From contig CAVJDT010000003.1 of NCBI GenBank assembly GCA_963648435.1, forward strand, positions 14,582 through 78,581: 64,000 nt of DNA, written 5' to 3'. The notes under the pieces were generated by a model that saw only the letters and a program-made list of their open reading frames with translations, ran no database searches and was not told the origin of the DNA. The position numbers and the translations under genes were made by a program. The stretch's first letter is position 1; every line of letters starts with the position of its first letter. This DNA comes from Bacillota bacterium. Lineage in GTDB: Bacteria > Bacillota_I > Bacilli_A > ML615J-28 > CAG-313. Positions 3,110 to 36,813 of this stretch are shown here, piece by piece.

Positions 3110-4588
3110 CTAAATTTCTTCGATTGAAGTGATTCCCTCAATCACTGCTTTTTTATGTTTTTCACTTAAAAGAATCATTTTATTTTTCTTAGCATATTGT
3201 TCTATTTTCTTTTCACTTGTTTCAGATAAAATCATTTCTTTAATTTTATCATCAACTTCTAAAACTTCACTAAGTAAAAGTCGACCCTTGTATCCAGTAT
3301 TGAAACAATATTGACACCCCCTTTTCTTGTATAATTTTACATCATCGTTTATTTCAAGCTTTTGCCTAATATCGAAAGTTAGTTTTCTTTCTTCCTTACA
3401 TTTTGGACAAAGTACTTCAACTAAACGTTGACATATAACCACCCTTAAAGCACTACTAACTAAATATTTGGGAATCCCCATATCTAATAACCTTGTAATT
3501 GCCCCAATACTTGATGTTGTATGAAGTGTTGAAATTACTAAATGACCACTAAGAGCCGCTCTCATCGCAATTGAGGCGGTTTCTTCGTCTCTAATTTCAC
3601 CAATCATAATAACATTAGGGTCTTGACGTAAAATACTCCGTAATGCACTCGCAAAGGTTAAACCTGCTTGTTGATTAACCTGAATTTGGTTAATACCATC
3701 AATGGTATATTCAACCGGATCTTCAATTGTCACAATATTACTATCTTGCTTGTTTAATTCATTTAAAAAAGTATACATAGTCGTTGTTTTTCCACATCCA
3801 GTTGGACCCGTAACAAGAATCATTCCTGACTTTTCACTTAATAATGATTTAATGATTTTTTCCTCATTATTTGTATAATTTAAATTATTAAAATTAGCAT
3901 ATAATCGCATTTTATCTAAGACTCTAATAACAATTTTTTCACCTAAAACTGTAGGAACTGCACTAACCCGGAGGTCATAATCTTTATCTTTGATTTGATA
4001 TTTTAGTTTACCATCTTGTGGTAACATCTTTTTAGTAATATCAAGAGATGCCATAATCTTGATTCTTGCTAAAACTTCTTCATATAAATCTTTTCTAATT
4101 TTATCCATCTCGGTTAATTTGCCATCAAGTCTAATTCTAATAACTGATTCACCAGCATGAGGTTCAATATGGATGTCACTAGCCCCAAGTACTATGGCTT
4201 TTTCAATCCAAATATTAACCATTTGAACCACCGGGGAAGTATCGATTTCTTGATATTCAATTTTAGGTTCTTCATTTAATACTTTGGGTTCTAATTTTTC
4301 ACTATATTTTGAATAATTATAACGTTCTTTTCCCATTAGTTTTAAAAGTTCATATTTTTTAACCCATTCATCTTTACTTAATAAATAAACATGAAATTCA
4401 CTTGTCGATGTGACAAACAATTCACTACATGTATAATAAGCAAATTCCTCATAAATTAAAGCAATCAACTGAAAACAATCTTCATATATTAAACAACCAT
4501 GTTCATACATCCAATCTAATGATACTTCATTCCAAATTTTATCTAAATTTAAGTGATAATTATAGGGAATTAGTTTTCCATTATTCAT
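3110..4588 (-). CDS. pilB: type IV pilus assembly ATPase (PilB/GspE family) with a ~120-aa N-terminal extension
   Basis: Walker A VTGPTGCGKTT; the Asp and His boxes are present. A C-terminal tetracysteine motif is present (CPKC..CQYC). At 492 aa it is longer than ComGA. Confidence 0.9.
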   Translation of the reverse strand: MNNGKLIPYNYHLNLDKIWNEVSLDWMYEHGCLIYEDCFQLIALIYEEFAYYTCSELFVTSTSEFHVYLLSKDEWVKKYELLKLMGKERYNYSKYSEKLEPKVLNEEPKIEYQEIDTSPVVQMVNIWIEKAIVLGASDIHIEPHAGESVIRIRLDGKLTEMDKIRKDLYEEVLARIKIMASLDITKKMLPQDGKLKYQIKDKDYDLRVSAVPTVLGEKIVIRVLDKMRLYANFNNLNYTNNEEKIIKSLLSEKSGMILVTGPTGCGKTTTMYTFLNELNKQDSNIVTIEDPVEYTIDGINQIQVNQQAGLTFASALRSILRQDPNVIMIGEIRDEETASIAMRAALSGHLVISTLHTTSSIGAITRLLDMGIPKYLVSSALRVVICQRLVEVLCPKCKEERKLTFDIRQKLEINDDVKLYKKRGCQYCFNTGYKGRLLLSEVLEVDDKIKEMILSETSEKKIEQYAKKNKMILLSEKHKKAVIEGITSIEEI

Positions 4589-4589
4589 T

Positions 4590-5816
4590 TTACACCTCCA
4601 TCATTTCATTCATAATTTTAAATAAAGGTAAGAATACTGCGATAACAACTAATGTCACAATTAAAGCCATTAAAACAATAATCGCAGGTTCAATAATTTT
4701 AGTTAATTTTGAGGTTTTATTATCAGCTTCATTATCATAATAATCAGCCGTACTTTTTAAAACATTATCTAAATTATTTGATTCTTCCCCAATTTTAATC
4801 ATTTCAATCATCATAATTGGAAAATATCCAACTATACTTAACGCACTAGATAAATTTTGACCTTGATATACCCTTGTATTTACAATTTCTAGTTTTTTTC
4901 TTAAATATTTATTATCAATTAAACTTATAGTTTTAGATAAGGCCGTAAATAATGGAATTCCACTACCATACATCATGGCAAGTGATCTTGTGAAATTAGA
5001 AGTAATTAACCACTTCTGAATTTTACCATAAATTAAGCTCTTCGTCTTTAAATAATCTATTGTATAATTCCCCTTAGCCCGGCTAATCATTTTAATAATT
5101 AAATATCCAAATAAAATTCCAAGGAGCACAAATATAGCATTTTTTTGAAAAAAACTAGATACTTTAAAAATGATTATTGTTATTTTAGGCATTTCTTTCA
5201 AATTTAAATTAACAAAAATTTCCTTAAATTTTGGTATTATAAAAAAGAACAAAACCCCAATAATTAATATCGTTATTCCAAGTAGTAGACAAGGATAAAT
5301 TAATGCACTTTTTACTTTTTGTTTTAACAAATGGTCTTTATAATAATAATTCTTTAAATACACTAACACATCAATTAATTTATTTGCCTCTTCTCCTGTT
5401 TTAATCATCATAATAAAAAGACTAGGAAAATACTGTTTAAAGGATTCTAAACTTGATGAAAACGACATTCCTGCTTGAAGGTTTCGAATTATTTTTTTGA
5501 TTATATTATTAAGCAAATAATGATGATAATTTTCATTAAAAGCTTTTAGTGCATTAACTAAAGATACTCCGGACTTTAACATAACCACTAAGTTTTCACA
5601 AAAATTAGAAATCACAATGCTTTTAATTTTAGTATTCATTAAATTTGTGTAATTTCTTACCTTCTTGCATCTAATAAGTTTAAGGTTTGAACTTGCTAAA
5701 AAGTCTTTAAGTTCTTCTTTACTACTCGCATATCCACTATTTTTAATTTTTTGATGTTGGGCATTTAAGACAACATAATTATATTTATTATCCATGCTTT
5801 CCTCTCCATTCTTCAA
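4590..5816 (-). CDS. pilC: type IV pilus inner-membrane platform protein (PilC/GspF family)
   Basis: Two GspF repeats and three TM segments; GSGIPLFTAL.. motif; abuts pilB with a 1-nt gap. Confidence 0.85.
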   Translation of the reverse strand: MKNGEESMDNKYNYVVLNAQHQKIKNSGYASSKEELKDFLASSNLKLIRCKKVRNYTNLMNTKIKSIVISNFCENLVVMLKSGVSLVNALKAFNENYHHYLLNNIIKKIIRNLQAGMSFSSSLESFKQYFPSLFIMMIKTGEEANKLIDVLVYLKNYYYKDHLLKQKVKSALIYPCLLLGITILIIGVLFFFIIPKFKEIFVNLNLKEMPKITIIIFKVSSFFQKNAIFVLLGILFGYLIIKMISRAKGNYTIDYLKTKSLIYGKIQKWLITSNFTRSLAMMYGSGIPLFTALSKTISLIDNKYLRKKLEIVNTRVYQGQNLSSALSIVGYFPIMMIEMIKIGEESNNLDNVLKSTADYYDNEADNKTSKLTKIIEPAIIVLMALIVTLVVIAVFLPLFKIMNEMMEV

Positions 5817-6593: not shown

Positions 6594-7262
6594 TTATACC
6601 ACACTAGCCACACGACTATGGTGTAAACCATCAATCTTTAAAGATTTTTTATCAGAAAGCACCAATATTTTAGAAATAGTATAATCATTTTTATCAAGCA
6701 ATTGCATAATCTTAGTATCTACTTTATCATCATCAATAGTAATTATTTGTTTTAATCCAACTTCATCATAAAGCATTCCCACTAACATTTCATCTAAATA
6801 GATAAAAACTAAGTCATGACATTCATCTTTATATTTTTGTTCAATATATAAAGATAATAACATTCCTTGTTTTAATTTTTGATTAAACATTTTAAAAAAT
6901 TCTTTTACTTCCATATATTGTAATTTATTTAAACACCATATTTTTAAATAATTCCACTTTTTTTGCTTTACTTCTTTTTTAATTGTCACAATTTTGTCAA
7001 CATTGTAATTAAACTTTAATAAAATTTCATTTTTAATATTATTTTTCTTATTACTTTCACTCCTGATATAAGCTTGATTATAGAAGTGAAATAACCAAAT
7101 TATCTTGGTTTTATTTTGATAATAAATTAATAAATTACGCATAACCTCATCATATAATGAAATTAAATCATCATTTTCCAAACAACATTGATTATTTTGA
7201 CTAATTATCCTAACTTCCCACTTTACTCTATTTCTAATAACCACAACATAAACTTCACTCAT
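6594..7262 (-). CDS. hypothetical soluble protein encoded within the pilus operon
   Basis: 222-aa ORF tightly packed between pilin genes (8-nt overlap upstream). No motif I recognise and no TM segment. Confidence 0.4.
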   Translation of the reverse strand: MSEVYVVVIRNRVKWEVRIISQNNQCCLENDDLISLYDEVMRNLLIYYQNKTKIIWLFHFYNQAYIRSESNKKNNIKNEILLKFNYNVDKIVTIKKEVKQKKWNYLKIWCLNKLQYMEVKEFFKMFNQKLKQGMLLSLYIEQKYKDECHDLVFIYLDEMLVGMLYDEVGLKQIITIDDDKVDTKIMQLLDKNDYTISKILVLSDKKSLKIDGLHHSRVASVV

Positions 7263-12936: not shown

Positions 12937-15638
12937 TATTTGATCATTTCCTTTACTTTTGCAAGGGCTTCATCAATTTTATTTACATCTTTACCCCCTG
13001 CTTGGGCAAAATCGGGTCTACCACCACCATTACCACCAGTTATGATGGCAGCAGTTTTAACTAAATCCCCAGAGCGATTGTTATTGCCTTTTGATTTAGC
13101 AATGAAAACTATTTTTCCATGACTTACACTTGCGATAAACACAACACAATTTGCCATAGTAGCACTAATCTTATCAATAATATCCTTTACAACATCAATT
13201 TCATAGTCTTCAAGTTTTGTAATCACCACATCAATACCATTAATTTGATATTTATTATTAATTAAAGATTCATAATTAGAAGATTTATGTGCTCGATAAA
13301 TATTATCAAATTCCTTATCTAGTTCTTTTATTTCATTTCTAGCCTTAATTAACGCCTCACGATAATTTAAAATATCTTGATAACTACTAGTAAAACGAGG
13401 TAAAATAATCGGACTTGATACAAGAGTAATCTTTTCATCATTAGCTTTAGCCATAATAGCTTTACGCTTTGCTTCTAAATTTTTCAAATCTTCAATTATT
13501 CCACTTAATTTTTCTTGTTCTGATGCTATTATATTATTTTTAGTAGCAGCTTCAATTCTAAAAATACCAGATCCTTTAGATTCAACCCCTAAAATGGCAA
13601 ATTTTTCAATTTCCATGGTATTTTTAACATGCGTACCACCACAAAGTTCCTTACTATAAGCCATTTCCACTAATCTAACCTTAGAACCATACTTTTCACC
13701 AAACACAGCTTGAGCCCCAAGAGCTTTAGCCTTATCAATGGTTGTAATTGTTGTTGTCACAATATTATTTTCTTTAATTGCTTTATTAACAATTTGTTCA
13801 ATTTCCAAAATTTGTTTTGAAGTTAAATTCTCATAATTATTAAAATCAAACCTTAAACCTTCATTTGTTACTTGACTACCTTGTTGAATAACATGTTTAC
13901 CTAAAACCATTCTTAAAGCCTCATTTAATAAATGGGTTGCGGAATGGTTAGAAGCAGTATCTGCTCTAAAGGCTTCGTCTACTTCAAGAAAAACTGCATC
14001 CCCTTCATGAAGAATTGCATCTTTCATATTTACGATATGAGCAGATTGACCATTTGGAAATTTCATTGTATTTAAAATATTGAAAGTTTCATTATTAATT
14101 ATTAAATGTCCTTGGTCACCATTTTGACCACCACTTTCACCATAAAAAGGCGTTTTATCAAATAGTACAATAACTTCACCATTGGCTTCTTTTACTTCAT
14201 GACCATTTTTAAAGATTCCTATTACTTTAGCATCACAATTTAAAGTATCATAGCCAACAAATAATGATTCTTTTTTAAAATTTATATATTCTTCATTTTG
14301 CGTATTCATTGATTGTTCACTATTACGGGCTTTACGAGCTCTTTCTTTTTGTTTTTGAAGTTCATTATTAAAAGCATCAATATCAACCGTAAAACCTTTA
14401 TCTTCGGCAGCTTCCACCGTTAATTCAATCGGAAAGCCGAAAGTGTCATATAGTAAAAAAGCATCACTACCACTAATTATCTTACTTTTAGCATTTTCAA
14501 TAATATCATTAAGTTTCTTTTCGCCTGATTCTAAAGTTTTTAAGAAATTTTCTTCTTCTATTTTAACTAATTTAGTAATAATGGTTTCTTTTTCAACTAA
14601 ATATGAATAAAAACTCTTCATATTTTCAATTACAACTGAAACAATTTTATATAAGAAAGGTTCATTTATACCTAAACGTTTTCCCATTCTAACCGCACGT
14701 CTTAAGATTCTTCTTAATACATAGCCACGACCCTCATTTGATAAAATGGCCCCATCAGCAAGAGCGAAAACAACACTTCTAATATGATCAACAATAACTC
14801 TAAATGCCATCTTTTGAGACTGTGAACATTCACCATATTTAATGCCGGATAACGTCTCAACATATTTAATCATTGGCATAAATAAGTCCGTTTCATAATT
14901 AGTTTCAACTCCCTGAAAAACACAAGCAAATCTTTCAAGTCCACCACCTGTATCAATATTTTTACTAGGTAATTCCGGATAATCCTCACGCTTTAAACCT
15001 GGAGTTGAATTAAATTGACTAAACACAATATTCCAAATTTCAATATAACGATCATTCTCAATATCTTCCGCAAGTAATTTAATACCTAAACCATTAGGGT
15101 CATATTTTTCACCACGGTCAAAGAAAATTTCCGTATCAGGTCCACAAGGTCCTTCTCCTATTTCCCAGAAGTTATCAGCAATCGGAACTAAATGCGCAGG
15201 ATTAACACCTAAACTAACCCATTTATTGTAAGTATCTTTATCATCTGGATAATAAGTAATATAAATTAAATCCCGAGGAATTCCAAACCACTTTTCATCA
15301 AATAATAACTCACTTGCAAATTCCAAAGCTTCATTTCTAAAATAATCACCAATTGAAAAATTACCTAACATTTCAAAAAAGGTATGATGACGAGCTGTTT
15401 TTCCAACATTTTCAATATCATTAGTACGTAATGACTTTTGAGCATTACATAAACGAGGATTTTCAGGCTTCTCACGACCATCAAAATATTTTTTAAGCGG
15501 GGCAACCCCTGCATTAATCCAAAGTAAAGTAGGATCATCAATTGGAATTAGCGATGCACTTGGTACAATTTTATGACCTTTACTGGCAAAAAAATCAAGC
15601 CACATTTGTCTAATTTCATAACTTTTTAAATTTTTCAT
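12936..15638 (-). CDS. alaS: alanine--tRNA ligase
   Basis: 900 aa: class II catalytic core, editing domain (HxxxH..CGGTH) and C-terminal DHHA1 (GGGRPDFAQAGG). Confidence 0.95.
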   Translation of the reverse strand: MKNLKSYEIRQMWLDFFASKGHKIVPSASLIPIDDPTLLWINAGVAPLKKYFDGREKPENPRLCNAQKSLRTNDIENVGKTARHHTFFEMLGNFSIGDYFRNEALEFASELLFDEKWFGIPRDLIYITYYPDDKDTYNKWVSLGVNPAHLVPIADNFWEIGEGPCGPDTEIFFDRGEKYDPNGLGIKLLAEDIENDRYIEIWNIVFSQFNSTPGLKREDYPELPSKNIDTGGGLERFACVFQGVETNYETDLFMPMIKYVETLSGIKYGECSQSQKMAFRVIVDHIRSVVFALADGAILSNEGRGYVLRRILRRAVRMGKRLGINEPFLYKIVSVVIENMKSFYSYLVEKETIITKLVKIEEENFLKTLESGEKKLNDIIENAKSKIISGSDAFLLYDTFGFPIELTVEAAEDKGFTVDIDAFNNELQKQKERARKARNSEQSMNTQNEEYINFKKESLFVGYDTLNCDAKVIGIFKNGHEVKEANGEVIVLFDKTPFYGESGGQNGDQGHLIINNETFNILNTMKFPNGQSAHIVNMKDAILHEGDAVFLEVDEAFRADTASNHSATHLLNEALRMVLGKHVIQQGSQVTNEGLRFDFNNYENLTSKQILEIEQIVNKAIKENNIVTTTITTIDKAKALGAQAVFGEKYGSKVRLVEMAYSKELCGGTHVKNTMEIEKFAILGVESKGSGIFRIEAATKNNIIASEQEKLSGIIEDLKNLEAKRKAIMAKANDEKITLVSSPIILPRFTSSYQDILNYREALIKARNEIKELDKEFDNIYRAHKSSNYESLINNKYQINGIDVVITKLEDYEIDVVKDIIDKISATMANCVVFIASVSHGKIVFIAKSKGNNNRSGDLVKTAAIITGGNGGGRPDFAQAGGKDVNKIDEALAKVKEMIK

Positions 15639-15878
15639 ATTATCTTTTTCCCTTCATTGCTTAAAAAAAGTTCCCATGCCTAAGCATAGGAACGAATAAA
15701 TCGCGGTACCATCCTAATTTGTAGTTACATAACCACACACTTAATTAGTTATAACGTAACTACCGGGAATTGTTAATTCCTCTCAAAAGGAGCTTCAATA
15801 CGAGTAATCTAGTTTTTCACCAACCAACTAGTCTCTAAAATTTACTCTATATTTACTAATCTTTATCATCGATTTGTA
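15639..15878 (-). promoter_or_regulatory. T-box riboswitch leader of alaS
   Basis: Minus strand carries the T-box AATTAGGATGGTACCGCG (~15703-15720) with the UGGU bulge. The terminator is GTTCCtatgcttaggcatGGGAAC plus seven T's (~15664-15694). Stem I has AGAGA motifs, and a GCU triplet sits in GAAGCUCC (~15792). Confidence 0.7.
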
Positions 15879-18800
15879 TTATGCTGCTTGTTCTTCTTTA
15901 GAAACTGCGGCAGCTTTTTCTTTTTCAGCAGCTTTTTGTTTAGCTAGTTTTTCTTTTTCAAGAGCTTTTTGTTTAGCTAACTTTTCTTTTTCTTTTTCAG
16001 CAGCTTTTTGTTTAGCTAGTTTTTCTTTTTCAAGAGCTTTTTGTTTAGCTAACTTTTCTTTTTCTTTTTCAGCAGCTTTTTGTTTAGCTAGTTTTTCTTT
16101 TTCAAGAGCTTTTTGTTTAGCTAACTTTTCTTTTTCTTTTTCAGCAGCTTTTTGTTTAGCTAGTTTTTCTTTTTCAAGAGCTTTTTGTTTAGCTAACTTT
16201 TCTTTTTCTTTTTCAGCAGCTTTTTGTTTTGCAAGTTTTTCTTTTTCAAGAGCTAACGCGGCATCTTTACGAGCTTTTTCTTCAGCTGCGGCTTGTAATT
16301 TAGCTTCTTTTTCAGCTTGAGCTGCTGCCATTTCAGCTTGTTTACGAGCTTTTTCTTCTTCAACTGCTTTTTGTTTTTCAGCTTTAATTGCATCTTTTTC
16401 AGCTTGTTTACGAGCTTTTTCTTCTTCAATTAATCTTTGCTTTTCAGCATCTAATTCTTCATAGTATGCAATTGAATTCTTAATAATGTTCTTAACTAGT
16501 TTTTCATCTAATTCGCCTTTATTAACTAATCTAAACCATTGTTCGCCCTTAGGACTAGTAGCTTTAACAATTGTTCCAGGATATTCAACAATTAGAGGGA
16601 AAGCTTTTTCTTGATTACTACAGAAAGTAATACGATAATCATTATTAGTTGACATAGTAATTAAGAATAATCTCTTACCAAAGAAATATCTACTAATGTT
16701 GCCTTTTGCATTTGGAACAACTTTAATTTCTTTATTAGGAATAGTTGATGCATATTTAACAACTTTTTCATATGAAGGTTTAAATACTTTTTTCTTCTTT
16801 AATTTTTCACGAGCTTCTTTTTCTTTTTCTTTAGCTATTCTTTCAGCTTCTCTTTCAGCTTCAGCTTTTCTAAGTGAATCAAGTTCTTCTAATTCTTTAG
16901 CAACTCTTGCATCTTCTGCTGCTTTTGCTTCTTCTGCCACTTTTGCTTCTTCTGCCGCTTTTGCTTCTTCTGCTAGTCTTGCTTCTTCTGCCGCTTTTGC
17001 AATTTCAGCTTGTCTTGCTTCTTCAGCTAGTCTTGCTTCTTCTGCCGCTTTTGCTTCTTCTTCAAGTCTTGCAAGTTCAGCTTGATGGGCAGCTTCTACT
17101 GCTTTTGCTTCTTCTTCAAGTCTTGCAAGTTCAGCCGCATGATCAGCACGACGTTTTTCCTCAGCTTCTCTTAATGTTGCAAGTTCTTCTTTTTCAGCTT
17201 GACGTTCAGCTTCTACTACTTTTGCCTCTTCTTCAAGTCTTGCTACTTCTGCTTGATGAGTTTCTTCAGTAGTTTTTGCAACTTCTTCAAGTCTTGCTAC
17301 TTCTGCTTGATGAGCTTCTTTTTCAGCCTTTGCAACTTCTTCAAGTCTTGCAATTTCAGCTTGATGAGTTTCTTCAGTAGTTTTTGCAACTTCTTCAAGT
17401 CTTGCTACTTCTGCTTGATGAGCTTCTTTTTCAGCCTTTGCAACTTCTTCAAGTCTTGCAATTTCAGCTTGATGAGTTTCTTCAGTAGTTTTTGCAACTT
17501 CTTCAAGTCTTGCTACTTCTGCTTGATGAGCTTCTTTTTCAGCCTTTGCAACTTCTTCAAGTCTTGCAATTTCAGCTTGATGAGTTTCTTCAGTAGTTTT
17601 TGCAACTTCTTCAAGTCTTGCTACTTCTGCTTGATGATTAGCTTCTGCAGCTTTAGCTTCTTCAAATAGTCTTGTTACTTCTGCTTGATGATTAGCTTCT
17701 GCAGCTTTTGCTTCTTCAGATAGTCTTGCACATTCTGCTTGATGAGCTTCTTTTTCAGCTTTAGCTTCTTCAGATAATCTTGCTACTTCTGCTTGATGAT
17801 TAGCTTCTGCAGCTTTTGCTTCTTCCTCAAGTCTTGCGCATTCTGCTTGATGAACTTCTTTTTCAGTTTTAGCTTCTTCAGATAGTCTTGCAAGTTCAAC
17901 TTCATAAGCTTTTTTAGCTTCACGTAATTTTTCAAGTTCAATGTGTTCTGCAATACGCTCAGCTTCTGCTCTTCTTAAAGCATCAAGTTCAGCACGGTCT
18001 GCACGACGTTCAGCTTCAGAAGTTCTTAAATATTCAAGTTCAGCATGTTCAACGCGATGTTTTTCTTCAGCTTTTCTTAAAGCATCAAGTTCAGCTTTAC
18101 TTTCTGGGCTCATTACTTCAACTACTTTTTCAATTACTTCAGGAACATATTCAGCTTTTTCTTTTGCAAAAGCAATTTTTTCCGCATTCAATGTTGCTTT
18201 TTCATTTTCAAGTGTATTTCTTTCTTCAGTAACTTTATTTTGTTCACTAACATATTCTAATTGCATTTGAGCAAGTAAAACTTGTAAATGAGCTAATTTA
18301 TCTTGTAGTGCAACTACTCTAGCATCTAATACCGGAGGTTTTTCTTGTTCTTCAGCGATACTCTTCTTTAATTCTTCGATTTCTATTTCAAGTGCTGTTT
18401 TCATGCTTTCAATCACCTCAATTTCATGTCTTAAAGTTTCTAATTCATCGTTTTCTAAACCACATAATCCTAATTGGTCTCTTGTATAAGTAAATAATTG
18501 TTCAAGAATATGTTGTTCAGCTTTATCATATTCTTTCTTATGAGCTTCAATAAAATCTTTAATTAAACGTGTTCTTGATTCAACTGAATATTCAGGATTT
18601 AATTTATATAATTTAACCATTGATAATACATGTAAACCAGTAATTAAACCACCAAATACAATTGGAATAATCAAGAAAAATACCGATGAATTAAAGGTTG
18701 TGCTTCCTTTAACTAAAGCAACATATTTATTTCCCATATCATTCATATAGAATAATAATCCTATGAATACGAGTGCAACAACTGTATCAATTAGCATCAT

Positions 18801-19214
18801 TTCATTTTTACTAAATGTTACCACAAACTTATATAATTGATGAGATACAACTACAATACTAACAAATAATAATGAGCAAACCATCACATTAATAATCCAA
18901 TGGGTTGTCGTATAAGGATCAGTTGATCTCACAAGCATCATTAAACCATCAAATAACAACGCAGCCATTGTAGTAAAAATCGGCATATAACAAGCTACTG
19001 TTGTATAACGTAATGATGGACGATAATTACGATATTTAGTTGATAAATTTATTAAAAATAAAACTAATGAAATAATTGGTAAAACTATTGCTTTTAAAAT
19101 TATTTCAACACGAGGTACTCCACTTAATCCCCAAGGAATGCAAATTGCAAAAGCAATAGCAACGGAAATCATACTATTTATAAACATTACTTTCTTTTCT
19201 CTACTATTTAACAT
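15879..19214 (-). CDS. large membrane-anchored coiled-coil repeat protein (N-terminal polytopic domain, two tandem-repeat arrays, central globular domain)
   Basis: Residues 1-300 form ~8 TM helices. Residues ~440-740 are 18-aa ARLEEVAK(T/A)..HQAE(V/I) repeats. Residues ~770-880 are a non-repetitive domain (..ISRYFFGKRLFLITMSTNNDYRITFCSNQ..). Residues ~990-1100 are 24-aa EKEKEKLAKQKALEKEKLAKQKAA repeats. Confidence 0.6.
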   Translation of the reverse strand: MLNSREKKVMFINSMISVAIAFAICIPWGLSGVPRVEIILKAIVLPIISLVLFLINLSTKYRNYRPSLRYTTVACYMPIFTTMAALLFDGLMMLVRSTDPYTTTHWIINVMVCSLLFVSIVVVSHQLYKFVVTFSKNEMMLIDTVVALVFIGLLFYMNDMGNKYVALVKGSTTFNSSVFFLIIPIVFGGLITGLHVLSMVKLYKLNPEYSVESRTRLIKDFIEAHKKEYDKAEQHILEQLFTYTRDQLGLCGLENDELETLRHEIEVIESMKTALEIEIEELKKSIAEEQEKPPVLDARVVALQDKLAHLQVLLAQMQLEYVSEQNKVTEERNTLENEKATLNAEKIAFAKEKAEYVPEVIEKVVEVMSPESKAELDALRKAEEKHRVEHAELEYLRTSEAERRADRAELDALRRAEAERIAEHIELEKLREAKKAYEVELARLSEEAKTEKEVHQAECARLEEEAKAAEANHQAEVARLSEEAKAEKEAHQAECARLSEEAKAAEANHQAEVTRLFEEAKAAEANHQAEVARLEEVAKTTEETHQAEIARLEEVAKAEKEAHQAEVARLEEVAKTTEETHQAEIARLEEVAKAEKEAHQAEVARLEEVAKTTEETHQAEIARLEEVAKAEKEAHQAEVARLEEVAKTTEETHQAEVARLEEEAKVVEAERQAEKEELATLREAEEKRRADHAAELARLEEEAKAVEAAHQAELARLEEEAKAAEEARLAEEARQAEIAKAAEEARLAEEAKAAEEAKVAEEAKAAEDARVAKELEELDSLRKAEAEREAERIAKEKEKEAREKLKKKKVFKPSYEKVVKYASTIPNKEIKVVPNAKGNISRYFFGKRLFLITMSTNNDYRITFCSNQEKAFPLIVEYPGTIVKATSPKGEQWFRLVNKGELDEKLVKNIIKNSIAYYEELDAEKQRLIEEEKARKQAEKDAIKAEKQKAVEEEKARKQAEMAAAQAEKEAKLQAAAEEKARKDAALALEKEKLAKQKAAEKEKEKLAKQKALEKEKLAKQKAAEKEKEKLAKQKALEKEKLAKQKAAEKEKEKLAKQKALEKEKLAKQKAAEKEKEKLAKQKALEKEKLAKQKAAEKEKAAAVSKEEQAA
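15935..16230. repeat. about four tandem copies of a 72-bp intragenic repeat (encodes the C-terminal EKEKLAKQKA array)
   Basis: Unit AGCAGCTTTTTGTTTAGCTAGTTTTTCTTTTTCAAGAGCTTTTTGTTTAGCTAACTTTTCTTTTTCTTTTTC repeats near-perfectly. Confidence 0.85.
16990..17900. repeat. intragenic tandem array of 54/108-bp units (encodes the ARLEE..HQAE coiled-coil repeats)
   Basis: TTCTTCAAGTCTTGC(T/A)A(C/T)TTC(T/A)GCTTGATGAG(C/T)TTCTT..TTTGCAAC repeats ~3.5 times with near-perfect identity between ~17280 and 17640. More degenerate copies flank it. Confidence 0.8.
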
Positions 19215-19235
19215 AATATTTTTCCTTTCTACTAC

Positions 19236-20222
19236 TTATTCTTGAGATGACTCAGTAGATTCAACGTTTTCTTTATTTTCTGCTTCGGATTCTTCTACTT
19301 TTATTTCAATTTTAGCACCACAGTTTGGGCAGAACTCATTTCCTGAAGTTAATTCAGCACCACATTTAGGGCAATGTTCTAAAGTATTTCCTTCTTTTAC
19401 TTCAGGCTTTTTTCCTTTTGGATCAAACTCATCTTCAAAATGTTGTTTGAAATAAATTTCAAAATCATCCATAATGTCATTGTAAGCACGATTATATTCT
19501 CTTTTTACAATACGATCATAATCTCTTTCAAGTGCTTCATCACATACATAAATACTACGATTATCTTTTTTGAAAATTCTTGCAAGTTTTGCGCAAATAA
19601 CAATGAATGAAATTACTGTAATAATGTATAGGAAGAATAGAATTGGATCACCATGTCCAACAAACGCTTCTTCTGCTTTAAATACATCAAGGTAATTTAC
19701 ATCAACTCTCCATGCAACTATAACAAAGCACACTGTTACTGCTAAAATAACACAGTCTAAAATTATAGTTGTAGTAATACTTAACTTAAATAATAAATTG
19801 GAAAAACAATGGAATCCAACAACCACAAAAGCTAAATATAAGATTAGTAATACCATTATTACAGCCCATGGACCAAATCCAAGAGGTTCACAACTATAAG
19901 CTAATGTGTGAATAACAAACACTAAAATAGCAGCCAAGTAAGAAACAATTGGGAAATAGCTCATTACGTTTACTACTTTAGATCTATCTAAACACTCTTG
20001 TAAGTCACGATATTTTTTTACATTTGCGTAAATAGATAATAAAATAATTACAACAGGTATAATTACAAATTTGATTAGCATTTCTGCTTTCATAACAGTT
20101 TCTACATTTTCCATCTTGCACAAAAATGGTAATGTTCTAAATGGAATAAAGACAATAATTCCAATCAACATTGACAAAATTGCACTAATGTACATGTAAA
20201 CTTTTTGACCTTTTGATAACAT
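19236..20222 (-). CDS. polytopic membrane protein with a C-terminal zinc ribbon; paralog of the N-terminal domain of the adjacent 1111-aa protein
   Basis: The N-terminal pattern ML..K..M.IS..I....IP and the KYR after TM2 are shared with 15879..19214. The C-terminus is CPKCGAELTSGNEFCPNCGAKIE followed by an acidic tail. Confidence 0.55.
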   Translation of the reverse strand: MLSKGQKVYMYISAILSMLIGIIVFIPFRTLPFLCKMENVETVMKAEMLIKFVIIPVVIILLSIYANVKKYRDLQECLDRSKVVNVMSYFPIVSYLAAILVFVIHTLAYSCEPLGFGPWAVIMVLLILYLAFVVVGFHCFSNLLFKLSITTTIILDCVILAVTVCFVIVAWRVDVNYLDVFKAEEAFVGHGDPILFFLYIITVISFIVICAKLARIFKKDNRSIYVCDEALERDYDRIVKREYNRAYNDIMDDFEIYFKQHFEDEFDPKGKKPEVKEGNTLEHCPKCGAELTSGNEFCPNCGAKIEIKVEESEAENKENVESTESSQE

Positions 20223-20347
20223 ACATTCACTCCCTTGAAAAAATCAACCGATTTTACTATATTTTTTAGCATTTTATACATCTATTATATCATAAACCAA
20301 AAATATTGTAAAATGATTAATACTTTTTTTTACAATTTTTCTTTATT

Positions 20348-35127: not shown

Positions 35128-35150
35128 AAGCCAAAACTTTCACTTTTTTA
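35125..35150. terminator. bidirectional rho-independent terminator
   Basis: AGTGAAAG-ccaaaa-CTTTCACTTTTTTAA overlapping the rarA stop. Confidence 0.65.
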
Positions 35151-36813
35151 ATTTATCTAGTTCTTCTTTTGTAAGCATTAATAAACTTATTCGGATTAAT
35201 AAATCCCGATATTTTAAAAATCCTTCAATTTTATTATTAATACTCATCATCATATGGTGATTAACATAACTACATGCACTATTAAAATTATTGCCTAAAA
35301 AAATGCGATAAGCAAAATTTTTCATTAAACTATCTAAATTAATTTCACTAGTAACCCCACCAATAAATTTATATCCAATATTACCACCCGTAATTAATAA
35401 ATATTCTAATATTTGATTATATTCAAAATTATCAATTATTTTTTCAATTCCGTTTATATAAACAATCGTCTTTTTCAATTTTTCAGGACTATGCTTATTG
35501 TATTCATCAATATTATTAGTATTATTATTGTTTAATATTTCTAGTTTTTCATCCATTTTAGCTTTAACTTTTTTCAAAAAATCCAAAGTAGTACTAGACT
35601 CAATTCCTAAATTTTCAAATAAACCTAAATTATTATTTAAATCAAGCAAATAAATTTCATACTCATTAATGTTTTTTTGAAATTTGGGATAAAAAAGCAG
35701 TGATATCAAATAATTACGATATACACTACCATCATTTGATACAATTAATAAATTTTCATCACATCTAACATATTCATTTCGGTCATCTTTTCCAATCACT
35801 ATTTCCAAGTTATCAGATGATGAATGCATTAAAGCTTCTTTCATCCTTAATGAATTACCAACTAAATTATTTACTTCAATTACAATTAAATCATGATTCT
35901 TATCATATCTTATTAAAAAAGGTTCATTCAAGATTTTACAAAGTGATATTTTAAATACTTCATAATTAACTTGTTGATAAGTTTTTATAAAAATAACACT
36001 AATATGATTACAAATAATATAACTTATATCTTGATAAAAAATACTTAAATGACTTAATTCTTTTTTTATATTCATTATGTAGGCTAACATTATTTTATTT
36101 TCTTTAGTAGTATCTATAATCTCATTGCTAAGTTTTCTTAAAGATAGTGGTTTAGTAGCTTTATCTTTAATTATATAATCATCATTAAACTGTTTCAATT
36201 TACTACCTACTTTTCGTGAGTATTTAAAGGCTCTTCCAAAACATTTCTTTAAACCGTTTTTCACCATTTTAAAAAACTCAAATACAGTTTTTTTACAAAT
36301 AAAAACAATGCCAACAAAAATCACCACCACACAAAATATAATAGTACCAACTTTAGAAAACAATAAAAAGAGAAGATAAAAAAGAATACAACCAACTAGA
36401 CCTCCCCCAATCATCATATCATTACGTCCATTTTTGAAATAATCAAAATATAAAAGAATTGTATTTTTAAAACTATTTCCTTCATATTTACTTACAAAAT
36501 TATGCATGGCAAAATGACTTAAAGTAATTATTGCAAGTACAACCATGACAATTCCTAAATATCTAATGTTTTTTATCGTAAAACGATGATGCACAAACAG
36601 AAAATAAATACCTAAAGCACCTAATAATAGTAAAAAAATAAAATACCAATCTCCAAAAAATAAACGAAATGTTAACATTCCATATTTTCCAACAATTCCT
36701 AGTCTTGCAATTGAAATTAAAGAAAATAATAAACAAACAATTCCTGCAACTTCATAAACAAAAATAAATTGTTTGGTCTTTTGTTCATATTCTGATAACT
36801 TTTCTTTTGCCAT
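35140..36813 (-). CDS. FtsK/SpoIIIE-like membrane protein with degenerate Walker A/B (putative pseudo-ATPase)
   Basis: N-terminal ~220 aa have 5-6 TM. The C-terminal domain aligns to the SpoIIIE motor: IVIGKDDRNEYVRCDENLLIVSNDGSVYRN versus IALGKDISGE..PHLLVAGATGSGKS. The Walker B region reads TIVYINGIEKI in place of the hhhhDE motif. The aligned domain is ~330 aa. Confidence 0.5.
   Translation of the reverse strand: MAKEKLSEYEQKTKQFIFVYEVAGIVCLLFSLISIARLGIVGKYGMLTFRLFFGDWYFIFLLLLGALGIYFLFVHHRFTIKNIRYLGIVMVVLAIITLSHFAMHNFVSKYEGNSFKNTILLYFDYFKNGRNDMMIGGGLVGCILFYLLFLLFSKVGTIIFCVVVIFVGIVFICKKTVFEFFKMVKNGLKKCFGRAFKYSRKVGSKLKQFNDDYIIKDKATKPLSLRKLSNEIIDTTKENKIMLAYIMNIKKELSHLSIFYQDISYIICNHISVIFIKTYQQVNYEVFKISLCKILNEPFLIRYDKNHDLIVIEVNNLVGNSLRMKEALMHSSSDNLEIVIGKDDRNEYVRCDENLLIVSNDGSVYRNYLISLLFYPKFQKNINEYEIYLLDLNNNLGLFENLGIESSTTLDFLKKVKAKMDEKLEILNNNNTNNIDEYNKHSPEKLKKTIVYINGIEKIIDNFEYNQILEYLLITGGNIGYKFIGGVTSEINLDSLMKNFAYRIFLGNNFNSACSYVNHHMMMSINNKIEGFLKYRDLLIRISLLMLTKEELDKLKK

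Follow-up and report, generated by a model that had tools for sequence, protein, structure and literature searches.

The window, a stretch of 64,000 nucleotides from a Bacillota bacterium (contig CAVJDT010000003.1), carries on its minus strand two adjacent genes, here called S and L. The open reading frame check reproduced both exactly as first annotated, with products of 328 and 1111 aa. S lies upstream and forms a bicistronic unit with L, which starts 21 nt past the S stop codon behind the ribosome-binding site AAAGGA; AGGGAG precedes the ATG of S. A promoter-like site upstream of S shows 11 of 12 consensus matches and is the best on the minus strand in the region. The features of the locus are as follows, in window positions:

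15879..19214, minus strand: L gene (L-type paralog), 1111 aa (ORF)
15882..15887, minus strand: conserved, L-type-specific C-terminal Ala-Ala of L, ..SKEEQAA-COOH (ortholog termini)
15882..16439, minus strand: Lys/Ala/Glu-rich helical tail of L with 24-aa EKEKLAKQKA repeats, aa 926-1111, net charge +18 (72-nt unit x4.7 at 99%)
16440..16796, minus strand: YjbR/MmcQ-like 'double-wing' domain of L, aa 807-925, net charge +9 (fold prediction)
16797..18179, minus strand: acidic helical stalk of L with 18-aa HQAEVARLEE repeats, aa 346-806 (repeat finding, charge, periodicity)
18180..18599, minus strand: juxtamembrane helix and canonical heptad coiled-coil segment of L, aa 206-345 (a/d periodicity)
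18600..19214, minus strand: 6-TM membrane module of L, aa 1-205 (BLASTP, hydropathy, family alignment)
19236..20222, minus strand: S gene (S-type paralog), 328 aa, here without the YjbR-like domain (ORF and homolog comparison)
19239..19310, minus strand: acidic C-terminal tail of S, aa 305-328 (charge computation)
19311..19376, minus strand: Cys4 zinc ribbon of S, aa 283-304 (PF13240)
19446..19541, minus strand: conserved juxtamembrane helix of S, aa 228-259, EYNRAYNDIMDDFEIYF (alignment and AF2 helix 228-259)
19587..20222, minus strand: 6-TM membrane module of S, aa 1-212 (hydropathy and AF2 model)
20284..20312, minus strand: promoter-like site upstream of S, TTTACA-17-TATAAT with extended TG (consensus match only)

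The first-pass annotation had described the N-terminal regions of the two products as one shared multi-TM module, and their paralogy is borne out by BLASTP (21% identity over ~260 aa, E=1e-13) and phmmer (1e-10). The motifs it had picked out, namely the Met-Leu start, the proline of an 'IP' in TM1 and the K-Y after TM2, are invariant throughout the family (M1, L2, K7, P27, K70 and Y71). Hydropathy and AF2 modelling predict six TM helices in S and six in L, joined by very short extracellular loops that include no sensor domain; in the model of the S module (pLDDT 83.8) the six helices are long. In both paralogs the TM helices contain invariant charged residues (E47 and K51 in TM2, D156 in TM5), and the conservation of these charges within the membrane suggests that the module may do more than anchor. 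It is also more strongly conserved than the tails, and one subfamily (P0129-P0148) is TM-only.

HMM and structural-similarity searches of Pfam, NCBIfam and PDB returned neither a significant sequence or structure match for the module nor any similarity to a transporter or channel family or fold. As the first reading had supposed, no known family accounts for it, and it constitutes a membrane-protein family that has not been described before. Among 1.84 billion proteins it is represented by only 111 cluster representatives, all apparently from uncultured gut Bacilli/"Mollicutes", and the source databases label the family 'hypothetical protein' throughout. The L module alone, used as homology query, gave a single match.

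Six TM helices place the N- and C-termini on one side of the membrane, and the K+R value is 12.2 on this N/C (cytoplasmic) side versus 3.7 outside. All tails of S and L are thus predicted to be cytoplasmic, since the positive-inside rule, the Cys4 zinc ribbon and the YjbR-like domain agree. The same three observations tell against the surface scaffold that had been entertained initially.

The repeats of L are real at the DNA level, with a 72-nt unit present 4.7 times at 99% identity (15914-16254) and 54/108-nt units present 17.5 and 6 times (16927-17879); in the protein they appear as 18-aa HQAEVARLEE.. and 24-aa EKEKLAKQKA.. units. The length variability foreseen for them is found among the L orthologs: these measure between 609 and 1111 aa, and their HQAE repeats drop in number from 13 to 5, 3, 2 and 0 as the relatives become more distant. 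The spacer ahead of the globular domain comprises about 546 residues and would measure ~80 nm if fully helical, with 186 residues following the domain. The whole linker (aa 261-806) has a net charge of -61. A long charged helical stalk carrying a globular domain was correctly recognized, but its description as a coiled coil is backed by a canonical heptad signature only at aa ~255-345. Hydrophobic enrichment at a/d positions is strong over aa 241-320 (0.52-0.58) and weak in the repeats (0.16-0.26 at aa 440-800 and 926-1111). A coiled coil is unestablished for the long repeats because they contain 40-62% charged residues and 10-17% strong hydrophobics; single alpha-helices are one possibility and a weak Ala-core coiled coil another. 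The 4-3-4-3-4 stripe of H/V/L/A/T in the 18-aa unit is compatible both with an Ala-core coil lacking supercoiling and with a single alpha-helix. The C-terminal tail is only mildly basic (+18 over 186 aa) and could pass for a charged helical stalk as readily as for a DNA-binding tail. The sole NCBIfam match in L, to the EntB cell-wall-binding protein, scored 28 bits against a cut-off of 780 and was discarded as a low-complexity repeat artefact.

YjbR/MmcQ domains are widespread and their structures date from around 20 years ago, yet they lack an established function. The non-repetitive segment of L, ~119 aa long (aa 807-925), is predicted with a confident fold (pLDDT 86.7) and is indeed globular; it is not novel, however, as fold search and family profile matches identify it as a divergent member of the YjbR/MmcQ-like double-wing type. 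The model runs from a helix through a four-stranded sheet, a helix and two strands to a C-terminal helix (double-wing / CyaY-like alpha-beta), and its top structural neighbours are all YjbR-family proteins. Known structures of this family (Pfam PF04237, formerly DUF419) include E. coli YjbR (2fki), D. radiodurans DR2400 (2a1v) and P. syringae PSPTO_3016 (2kfp). The domain of L itself has no match to PF04237 even at E<=10, and 9 of 19 family domains match it at 18.7-23.4 bits over profile positions 14-87 of 88, all below the curated gathering score of 30.1 bits. When the domain alignment was run as a profile against PDB sequences, it reached only E=0.28, to 2a1v, so the assignment required the fold search. 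A word-indexed search with the central domain alone had given two matches; the corresponding idea of an orphan domain was dropped, as the domain is present in about 50 S-type relatives.

Net charge is positive in 83% of 109 family domains. Nucleic-acid binding by a basic face is a prediction for the YjbR/MmcQ family and is putative in the L domain. The family has no DNA-bound structure and no demonstrated physiological role (PMC3424535, PMC7641849), so the ligand of the domain may instead be RNA, a protein or a small molecule. Our literature search found no paper on the S-L architecture and no functional study of YjbR. The first-pass annotation would have given way to a match with a well-characterised family, leaving the repeats as low-complexity spacers; because YjbR/MmcQ is structurally known yet functionally uncharacterised, the match obtained here is not of that kind.

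Outside the membrane module, S retains the juxtamembrane helix, in which E242, Y243, A246 and I250 (S numbering) are invariant across both paralog types. The CPxCG..CPNCG zinc ribbon noted at the outset is confirmed by Pfam Zn_Ribbon_1 (PF13240; 34.3 bits against a cut-off of 25, E=1.8e-8), with the two CxxC knuckles of CPKCG..CPNCG at aa 283-304; only some S-type relatives possess it. The net charge of aa 263-328 is -10. The 63 S-type homologs are mostly proteins of 490-570 aa that include a YjbR-like domain, usually behind an acidic, non-helical linker rich in Pro, Glu and Val, and a length as short as that of S occurs only in its closest clade (P0004-6, 75-87% identity). The small protein is thus a paralog, as proposed, but not a mere truncated copy, since the S-type is the better conserved of the two and mostly has its own YjbR-like domain.

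The pair does co-occur in related genomes: L-type directly follows S-type in 13 of the 13 genomes found, at a fixed housekeeping locus and not in a variable island, and in one lineage the two are fused into a single 12-TM protein, P0093. The ancestral build of both paralogs is a 6-TM module, the conserved juxtamembrane helix, a long acidic linker, a basic YjbR-like domain and a Lys/Ala-rich basic tail. In the clade of the window, S has lost the YjbR-like domain and the stalk of L has been lengthened by recent repeat expansion; the domain appears 'embedded' in L because a once-short C-terminal tail expanded. We regard this architecture and evolutionary history as very probable.

The neighbouring genes are housekeeping genes (polC, alaS, ruvX). 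Functional partners were sought among them, and the neighbourhood of the pair contains no conserved protease, sigma factor or partner regulator; its housekeeping character indicates nothing specific as to function. An AI-2E-family transporter gene lies directly upstream of the pair in most genomes and is missing in the remote lineage.

The C-terminus of L deserves separate mention. Ala-Ala ends 25 of 37 non-redundant L-type sequences, against an expected 7.6%, and none of 40 S-type sequences; the preceding residue is E, K or Q, where ssrA has L. A C-terminal Ala-Ala, conserved in 67 of 71 orthologs, is the ClpXP degron of sigma-AntA (PMC7142297). L orthologs likewise conserve Ala-Ala-COO-, as expected of ssrA-like ClpXP substrates, and by this analogy the L-type end resembles such a degron and is a candidate for one.

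Taken together, S and L very probably descend from an old tandem duplication, and the resulting gene pair is specific to an uncultured animal-gut Bacilli lineage (formerly 'Mollicutes'). Most likely the two membrane modules come together in a single hetero-oligomeric anchor, a proposal whose basis is the adjacency of the genes and the one fusion, and a hetero-complex is on balance probable. Labour has been divided in the clade of the window, with S providing a conserved anchor and zinc ribbon and L presenting the YjbR-like domain on a longer spacer. The acidic stalk, repelled by DNA and membrane alike, would act as an extended spacer, keeping a nucleic-acid-binding head at a defined and evolvable distance from the membrane and thereby tethering or organizing the nucleoid or another nucleic acid, while the abundance of L might be controlled via its C-terminal Ala-Ala as a ClpXP-type degron. 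A paired anchor holding a nucleic-acid-binding head at a set distance is our best overall explanation, function included, and we offer it tentatively. Tethering of DNA or the nucleoid by S-L, taken as a claim of its own, is doubtful. In its most elaborate form, a previously unknown heteromeric tether with a 12-TM (6+6) anchor, YjbR-type DNA-binding heads, repeat-tuned acidic helical 'rulers' and ClpXP control through the Ala-Ala degron, the idea is unlikely.

Several other explanations can be weighed against the paired anchor. The charged helices could form a membrane-attached rod or lattice, with the YjbR-like domain as a protein-protein node, setting distances or cell shape in a lineage related to the wall-reduced 'Mollicutes'. 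We consider such a cytoskeletal or spacer scaffold, which the first-pass annotation had suggested, unlikely, as the repeats are too poor in hydrophobics for stable bundling and the structural neighbours of the domain point to the YjbR family; moreover, S-type linkers are usually non-helical, so that charge and length, and not a rod, are the conserved properties of the linker. The intramembrane charges, the stronger conservation of the module, its TM-only subfamily and the AI-2E-family neighbour speak for a 6-TM module that is itself the functional core (a transporter, channel or intramembrane sensor), the YjbR-like domain and tails serving as regulatory or signalling output, for instance in a one-component regulator that is bound to the membrane and reaches DNA from there. 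However, the module resembles no transporter or channel in Pfam, NCBIfam or PDB, its very short extracellular loops include no sensor domain and the AI-2E gene is not a constant companion, which makes this account rather improbable.

The L-type-specific Ala-Ala could also belong to a membrane-sequestered regulator, in which the YjbR-like head becomes active after cleavage or L is turned over by ClpXP, much as in anti-sigma/RIP circuits. Besides the sigma-AntA precedent (PMC7142297), membrane anti-sigma fragments are removed in a Clp-dependent manner in Bacillus (PMC8767453). Against this, the neighbourhood offers no conserved protease, sigma factor or partner regulator, a switch needs no 80-nm stalk and the same domain occurs in S-type proteins that do not end in Ala-Ala; sequestration is accordingly a distinctly improbable explanation. 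Near-identical tandem repeats whose copy number differs between close relatives are typical of variable surface proteins, and fusions of YjbR with EVE domains occur in contexts of defence (PMC7641849), yet it is very improbable that the repeats belong to a length-variable antigen or adhesin on the surface of a Mollicutes-like organism, or that the pair serves in anti-phage defence. The even TM number and the charge bias (12.2 versus 3.7) place the tail in the cytoplasm and not outside the cell, the zinc ribbon in the tail region and the YjbR-like domain are cytoplasmic modules, and the locus is fixed among housekeeping genes. The defence option was rejected because the PADLOC (PADLOC-DB) defence-protein models matched neither L nor S.

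The paired anchor proposed here has partial parallels among known systems. FtsK/SpoIIIE proteins combine a polytopic N-terminal anchor, a long low-complexity linker and C-terminal DNA-handling domains. S-L similarly joins a multi-pass anchor and a very long, length-variable charged linker to a cytoplasmic putative DNA-binding head, but it consists of paired paralogs, its 6-TM module is different and not homologous, and Pfam detects neither the FtsK_SpoIIIE P-loop motor nor the gamma winged-helix domain in L or S. TolA has a membrane anchor, a long Lys/Ala/Glu-rich helical domain II and a globular domain III. Like TolA, L holds a globular domain at a distance on an anchored, long, charged Ala/Lys/Glu helical stalk; the TolA stalk spans the periplasm from a single TM helix, whereas that of L is predicted to be cytoplasmic on a polytopic anchor, and Pfam, fold and PDB searches revealed no relationship in sequence or fold. 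The L domain also has a distant structural similarity, and nothing closer, to the C-terminal 'double-wing' DNA-binding domain of bacteriophage T4 MotA, a soluble protein that activates transcription together with AsiA and sigma-70, partners that are absent here.

Known YjbR/MmcQ members are small and soluble or fused to EVE, TerB, GNAT or nuclease domains (PMC7641849). In the S-L family, by contrast, a long acidic spacer links the domain to a 6-TM module, and a Lys-rich tail comes after the domain. This obligate fusion to a membrane anchor, in a paralog pair at a locus fixed lineage-wide, gives YjbR/MmcQ a concrete and testable context, in a family confined to abundant uncultured gut Bacilli, the cell biology of which has barely been explored. 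Were the tether real, YjbR/MmcQ domains would gain their first physiological role, and genome-reduced gut Bacilli would have a way of placing or segregating the chromosome with respect to the membrane. In addition, the pair illustrates clearly how, in nature, the loss of a domain from one paralog can be coupled to the lengthening of its partner's stalk by repeats. Finally, regulation of a membrane protein by a C-terminal Ala-Ala degron may be at work in L, which shares the conserved Ala-Ala end with the ssrA tag and sigma-AntA (PMC7142297), but, unlike them, the putative substrate is an integral membrane protein with a helical tail of ~800 aa and has E, K or Q before the Ala-Ala.

Two adjacent minus-strand genes, S and L, encode paralogous membrane proteins, a case of membrane-anchored, stalk-presented, putative nucleic-acid-binding domains. 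The first-pass annotation had placed both ORFs exactly, and the 18-aa and 24-aa repeats that it read in L are present at the DNA level too. The features of the locus are as follows.

19236-20222, minus strand: S, ORF of 328 aa
15879-19214, minus strand: L, ORF of 1111 aa
20312-20284: strong sigma-70-like promoter-like site upstream of S (TTTACA-17-TATAAT with TG, 11/12 matches)
16927-17879: 54/108-nt repeat units, translating as 18-aa HQAEVARLEE.. units
15914-16254: 72-nt repeat unit (x4.7, 99% identity), translating as 24-aa EKEKLAKQKA.. units
15882-15887: conserved Ala-Ala terminus of L, specific to L-type proteins
15685-15878, minus strand: T-box leader (Rfam RF00230, 114 bits vs gathering score 93), starting 1 nt past the L stop codon

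The window has a GC content of about 30%, and the stretch around S and L is a housekeeping one, with the minus-strand order polC, a Bax-inhibitor-like gene, gap, an AI-2E-family transporter gene, S, L and alaS. S has a ribosome-binding site (AGGGAG) downstream of the promoter-like site, the 21-nt S-L spacer contains AAAGGA, and the T-box leader, with its terminator at 15693-15670, precedes and belongs to alaS. Judging from these signals, S and L look like a self-contained bicistronic unit. Read-through transcription from this unit would enter the alaS riboswitch directly.

The shared N-terminal membrane module proposed for the pair was borne out: the two modules are 21% identical over ~260 residues (BLASTP, E=1e-13), and each protein has six hydrophobic helices. 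AF2 modelled the module (pLDDT 83.8) as six long TM helices and a juxtamembrane helix. Among the positions invariant in both paralogs are the charged intrahelical residues E47 and K51 (TM2) and D156 (TM5), and the cytoplasmic-face motifs KY after TM2 and Y-x-P before TM3. The positive-inside rule (K+R 12.2 vs 3.7) predicts an N-in/C-in orientation, which places all tails in the cytoplasm, in agreement with the YjbR-like domain of L and with the zinc ribbon of S. The latter, already noted by eye, is a true Pfam Zn_Ribbon_1 match (34.3 bits vs cut-off 25). An exhaustive HMMER profile search recovered just 111 relatives of the module among 1.84 billion cluster representatives; the family has no earlier description and is apparently confined to uncultured Bacilli of the gut.

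In word-indexed searches, S retrieved 63 relatives (320-570 aa), all of them unnamed proteins, and the central domain or membrane module of L gave next to no matches. Sequence reading and phmmer mapping gave one common order for most S-type relatives, each a single protein: the 6-TM module comes first, then a juxtamembrane helix that is conserved (EYNRAYNDIMDDFExYF), zinc ribbons (none, one or two), an acidic linker (often Pro/Glu/Val-rich), a ~115-aa globular domain and a 30-40-aa Lys/Arg/Ala-rich tail. This globular domain is the one found in the middle of L. It lies C-terminal to the membrane module in every full-length protein of the 111, the remotest included (E~1e-4), which defines an obligate fusion family. 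In distant members both genes have the complete architecture, for instance with 559 and 619 aa in L006 (34% identity); in the window's clade (S identity at least 76%), S is without the globular domain and L measures 872-1111 aa. Linker and tail lengths trade off across lineages (linkers of ~100 aa and tails of 340-400 aa in L015-L017), and two tandem globular domains per protein occur in L010 and L011 (S-type and L-type genes), in L012, and in the homologous proteins P0067 and P0090. Neither the literature nor the source databases yielded an account of this combined architecture or of the conserved-paralog-pair organization.

The first-pass annotation was also right to see a globular domain embedded in L, for which AlphaFold2, run on the family alignment, gave a confident fold (pLDDT 86.7, pTM 0.80). 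Pfam YjbR (PF04237) was matched by 9/19 family domains and DUF5655 by 4/19; the YjbR scores (18.7-23.4 bits) stay under the cut-off of 30.1, yet the matches cover almost the whole profile. The window's own copy had no YjbR match. Taken together, the profile coverage and the model place the domain, as a divergent member, in the YjbR-like 'double-wing' superfamily, which is already known and functionally obscure. DNA binding has been predicted for this fold from its likeness to MotA, with no DNA complex and no physiological role reported (PMC7641849; PMC3424535). Of 109 domains of the family, 83% are net-positive (mean +4; +9 in the window's copy).

The S/L pair is ancient and linked. Co-occurrence in related genomes, raised in the earlier annotation, extends to every one of the 13 species-level genomes that were recovered, which are MAGs of uncultured 'Mollicutes'/'Bacilli' from guts of human, Hadza, chicken, goat, sheep and deer. 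In each, an L-type gene lies no more than about 20 nt downstream of an S-type gene, and the two share one conserved setting, polC-BaxI-(gap)-AI2E-S-L-alaS-ruvX. In one lineage, the exact syntenic slot of the pair holds a single 734-aa, 12-TM gene (P0093; L020 8001-10205) made of two tandem 6-TM modules (23% mutual identity) and one YjbR-like domain; as a Rosetta-stone fusion, it speaks for joint action of the two membrane modules. A remote lineage has a different neighbourhood (ppa-HAD), in which a short TM-only S-like gene directly precedes a long L-like one whose repeats are of the VEK type seen in P0168; the pairing of a short with a long gene thus arose, or was kept, beyond the window's clade too.

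L021 1459-3091 and L022 1228-2707: loci of the remote TM-only subfamily (proteins P0129-P0148, 254-312 aa)

In one relative (L004 7365-8789 / L005 2243-3667), gap and the AI-2E transporter gene are separated by an additional 474-aa gene that matches no Pfam family and that the window lacks. Near the locus of the distant L006 MAG lies a Spo0A_C-domain gene (1-669), indicating that some 'Mollicutes-like' Bacilli, at least, keep this sporulation master-regulator domain.

The stalk had been described as a coiled coil throughout. This holds near the membrane, where the heptad signature is clear (aa ~241-320 only, 0.52-0.58), and is not established for the repeats. In these, 10-17% of the residues are strongly hydrophobic and 40-62% charged, and the 18-residue unit makes five helical turns with H/V/L/A/T together on one face; the repeats could thus be either a single alpha-helix or an unsupercoiled coiled coil with an Ala core. 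At 0.15 nm/residue, a fully helical linker would span ~80 nm and a fully helical tail ~28 nm. The linker is strongly acidic (net charge -61), in contrast to a mildly basic tail (+18), a polarity conserved family-wide, including in non-helical linkers. HQAE repeats number 13 in the window and 5, 3, 2 and 0 in relatives of rising distance, indicating a recent expansion of the stalk. Short-read assemblies break at the repeat arrays; the lengths given for orthologs are therefore lower bounds, and the number of repeats counted in the window could be affected too. Within the L-type C-terminal repeats, the public MAG assembly L004/L009 has a run of N (about 14500-14700), and the L001, L003 and L005 contigs end.

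Of 37 non-redundant L-type sequences, 25 end in Ala-Ala, mostly as E-[EKQ]-A-A, where the composition of the tails would predict 7.6% (binomial P~1e-19, without phylogeny correction). The terminus occurs in the L-type proteins of L002, L006-L008, L010, L011, L014-L017 and many of the homologous proteins. None of 40 S-type sequences does so, most ending in K (E-N-K or E-E-K). A conserved C-terminal Ala-Ala characterizes ssrA-like ClpXP degrons; sigma-AntA has one too, and there it predicted control by ClpXP (PMC7142297). By analogy, the L-type terminus is possibly a ClpXP degron or docking motif.

S and L probably assemble as one hetero-oligomeric anchor, whose YjbR-like head may bind nucleic acid. 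With the acidic stalk as an extended spacer, the complex would keep the nucleoid tethered or organized at a defined distance from the membrane, and ClpXP would control L levels. Alternatively, the YjbR-like domain could be a protein-binding node and the pair a protein scaffold or spacer; the functional core could instead be the 6-TM module, in a transporter or sensor; or L could be a membrane-sequestered regulator under proteolytic control. A surface antigen or defence module is disfavoured, as the predicted cytoplasmic topology, the lack of any PADLOC match for S or L and the fixed housekeeping locus all speak against it. The biology of the system is unexplored and open to experiment, and it could supply YjbR with a function.

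Elsewhere in the window, a 557-aa ORF between mgsA and mscL (35140-36813, minus strand) matches no Pfam family at E<=1e-5. Two ORFs of 187 and 222 aa (2161-2724 and 6594-7262, both minus strand), with no Pfam matches, flank comGA/comGB-like genes (T2SSE, T2SSF; 3110-5816, minus strand) and may encode parts of a competence apparatus or type IV pseudopilus. In the relative L006, the corresponding region contains N_methyl prepilin-like genes.
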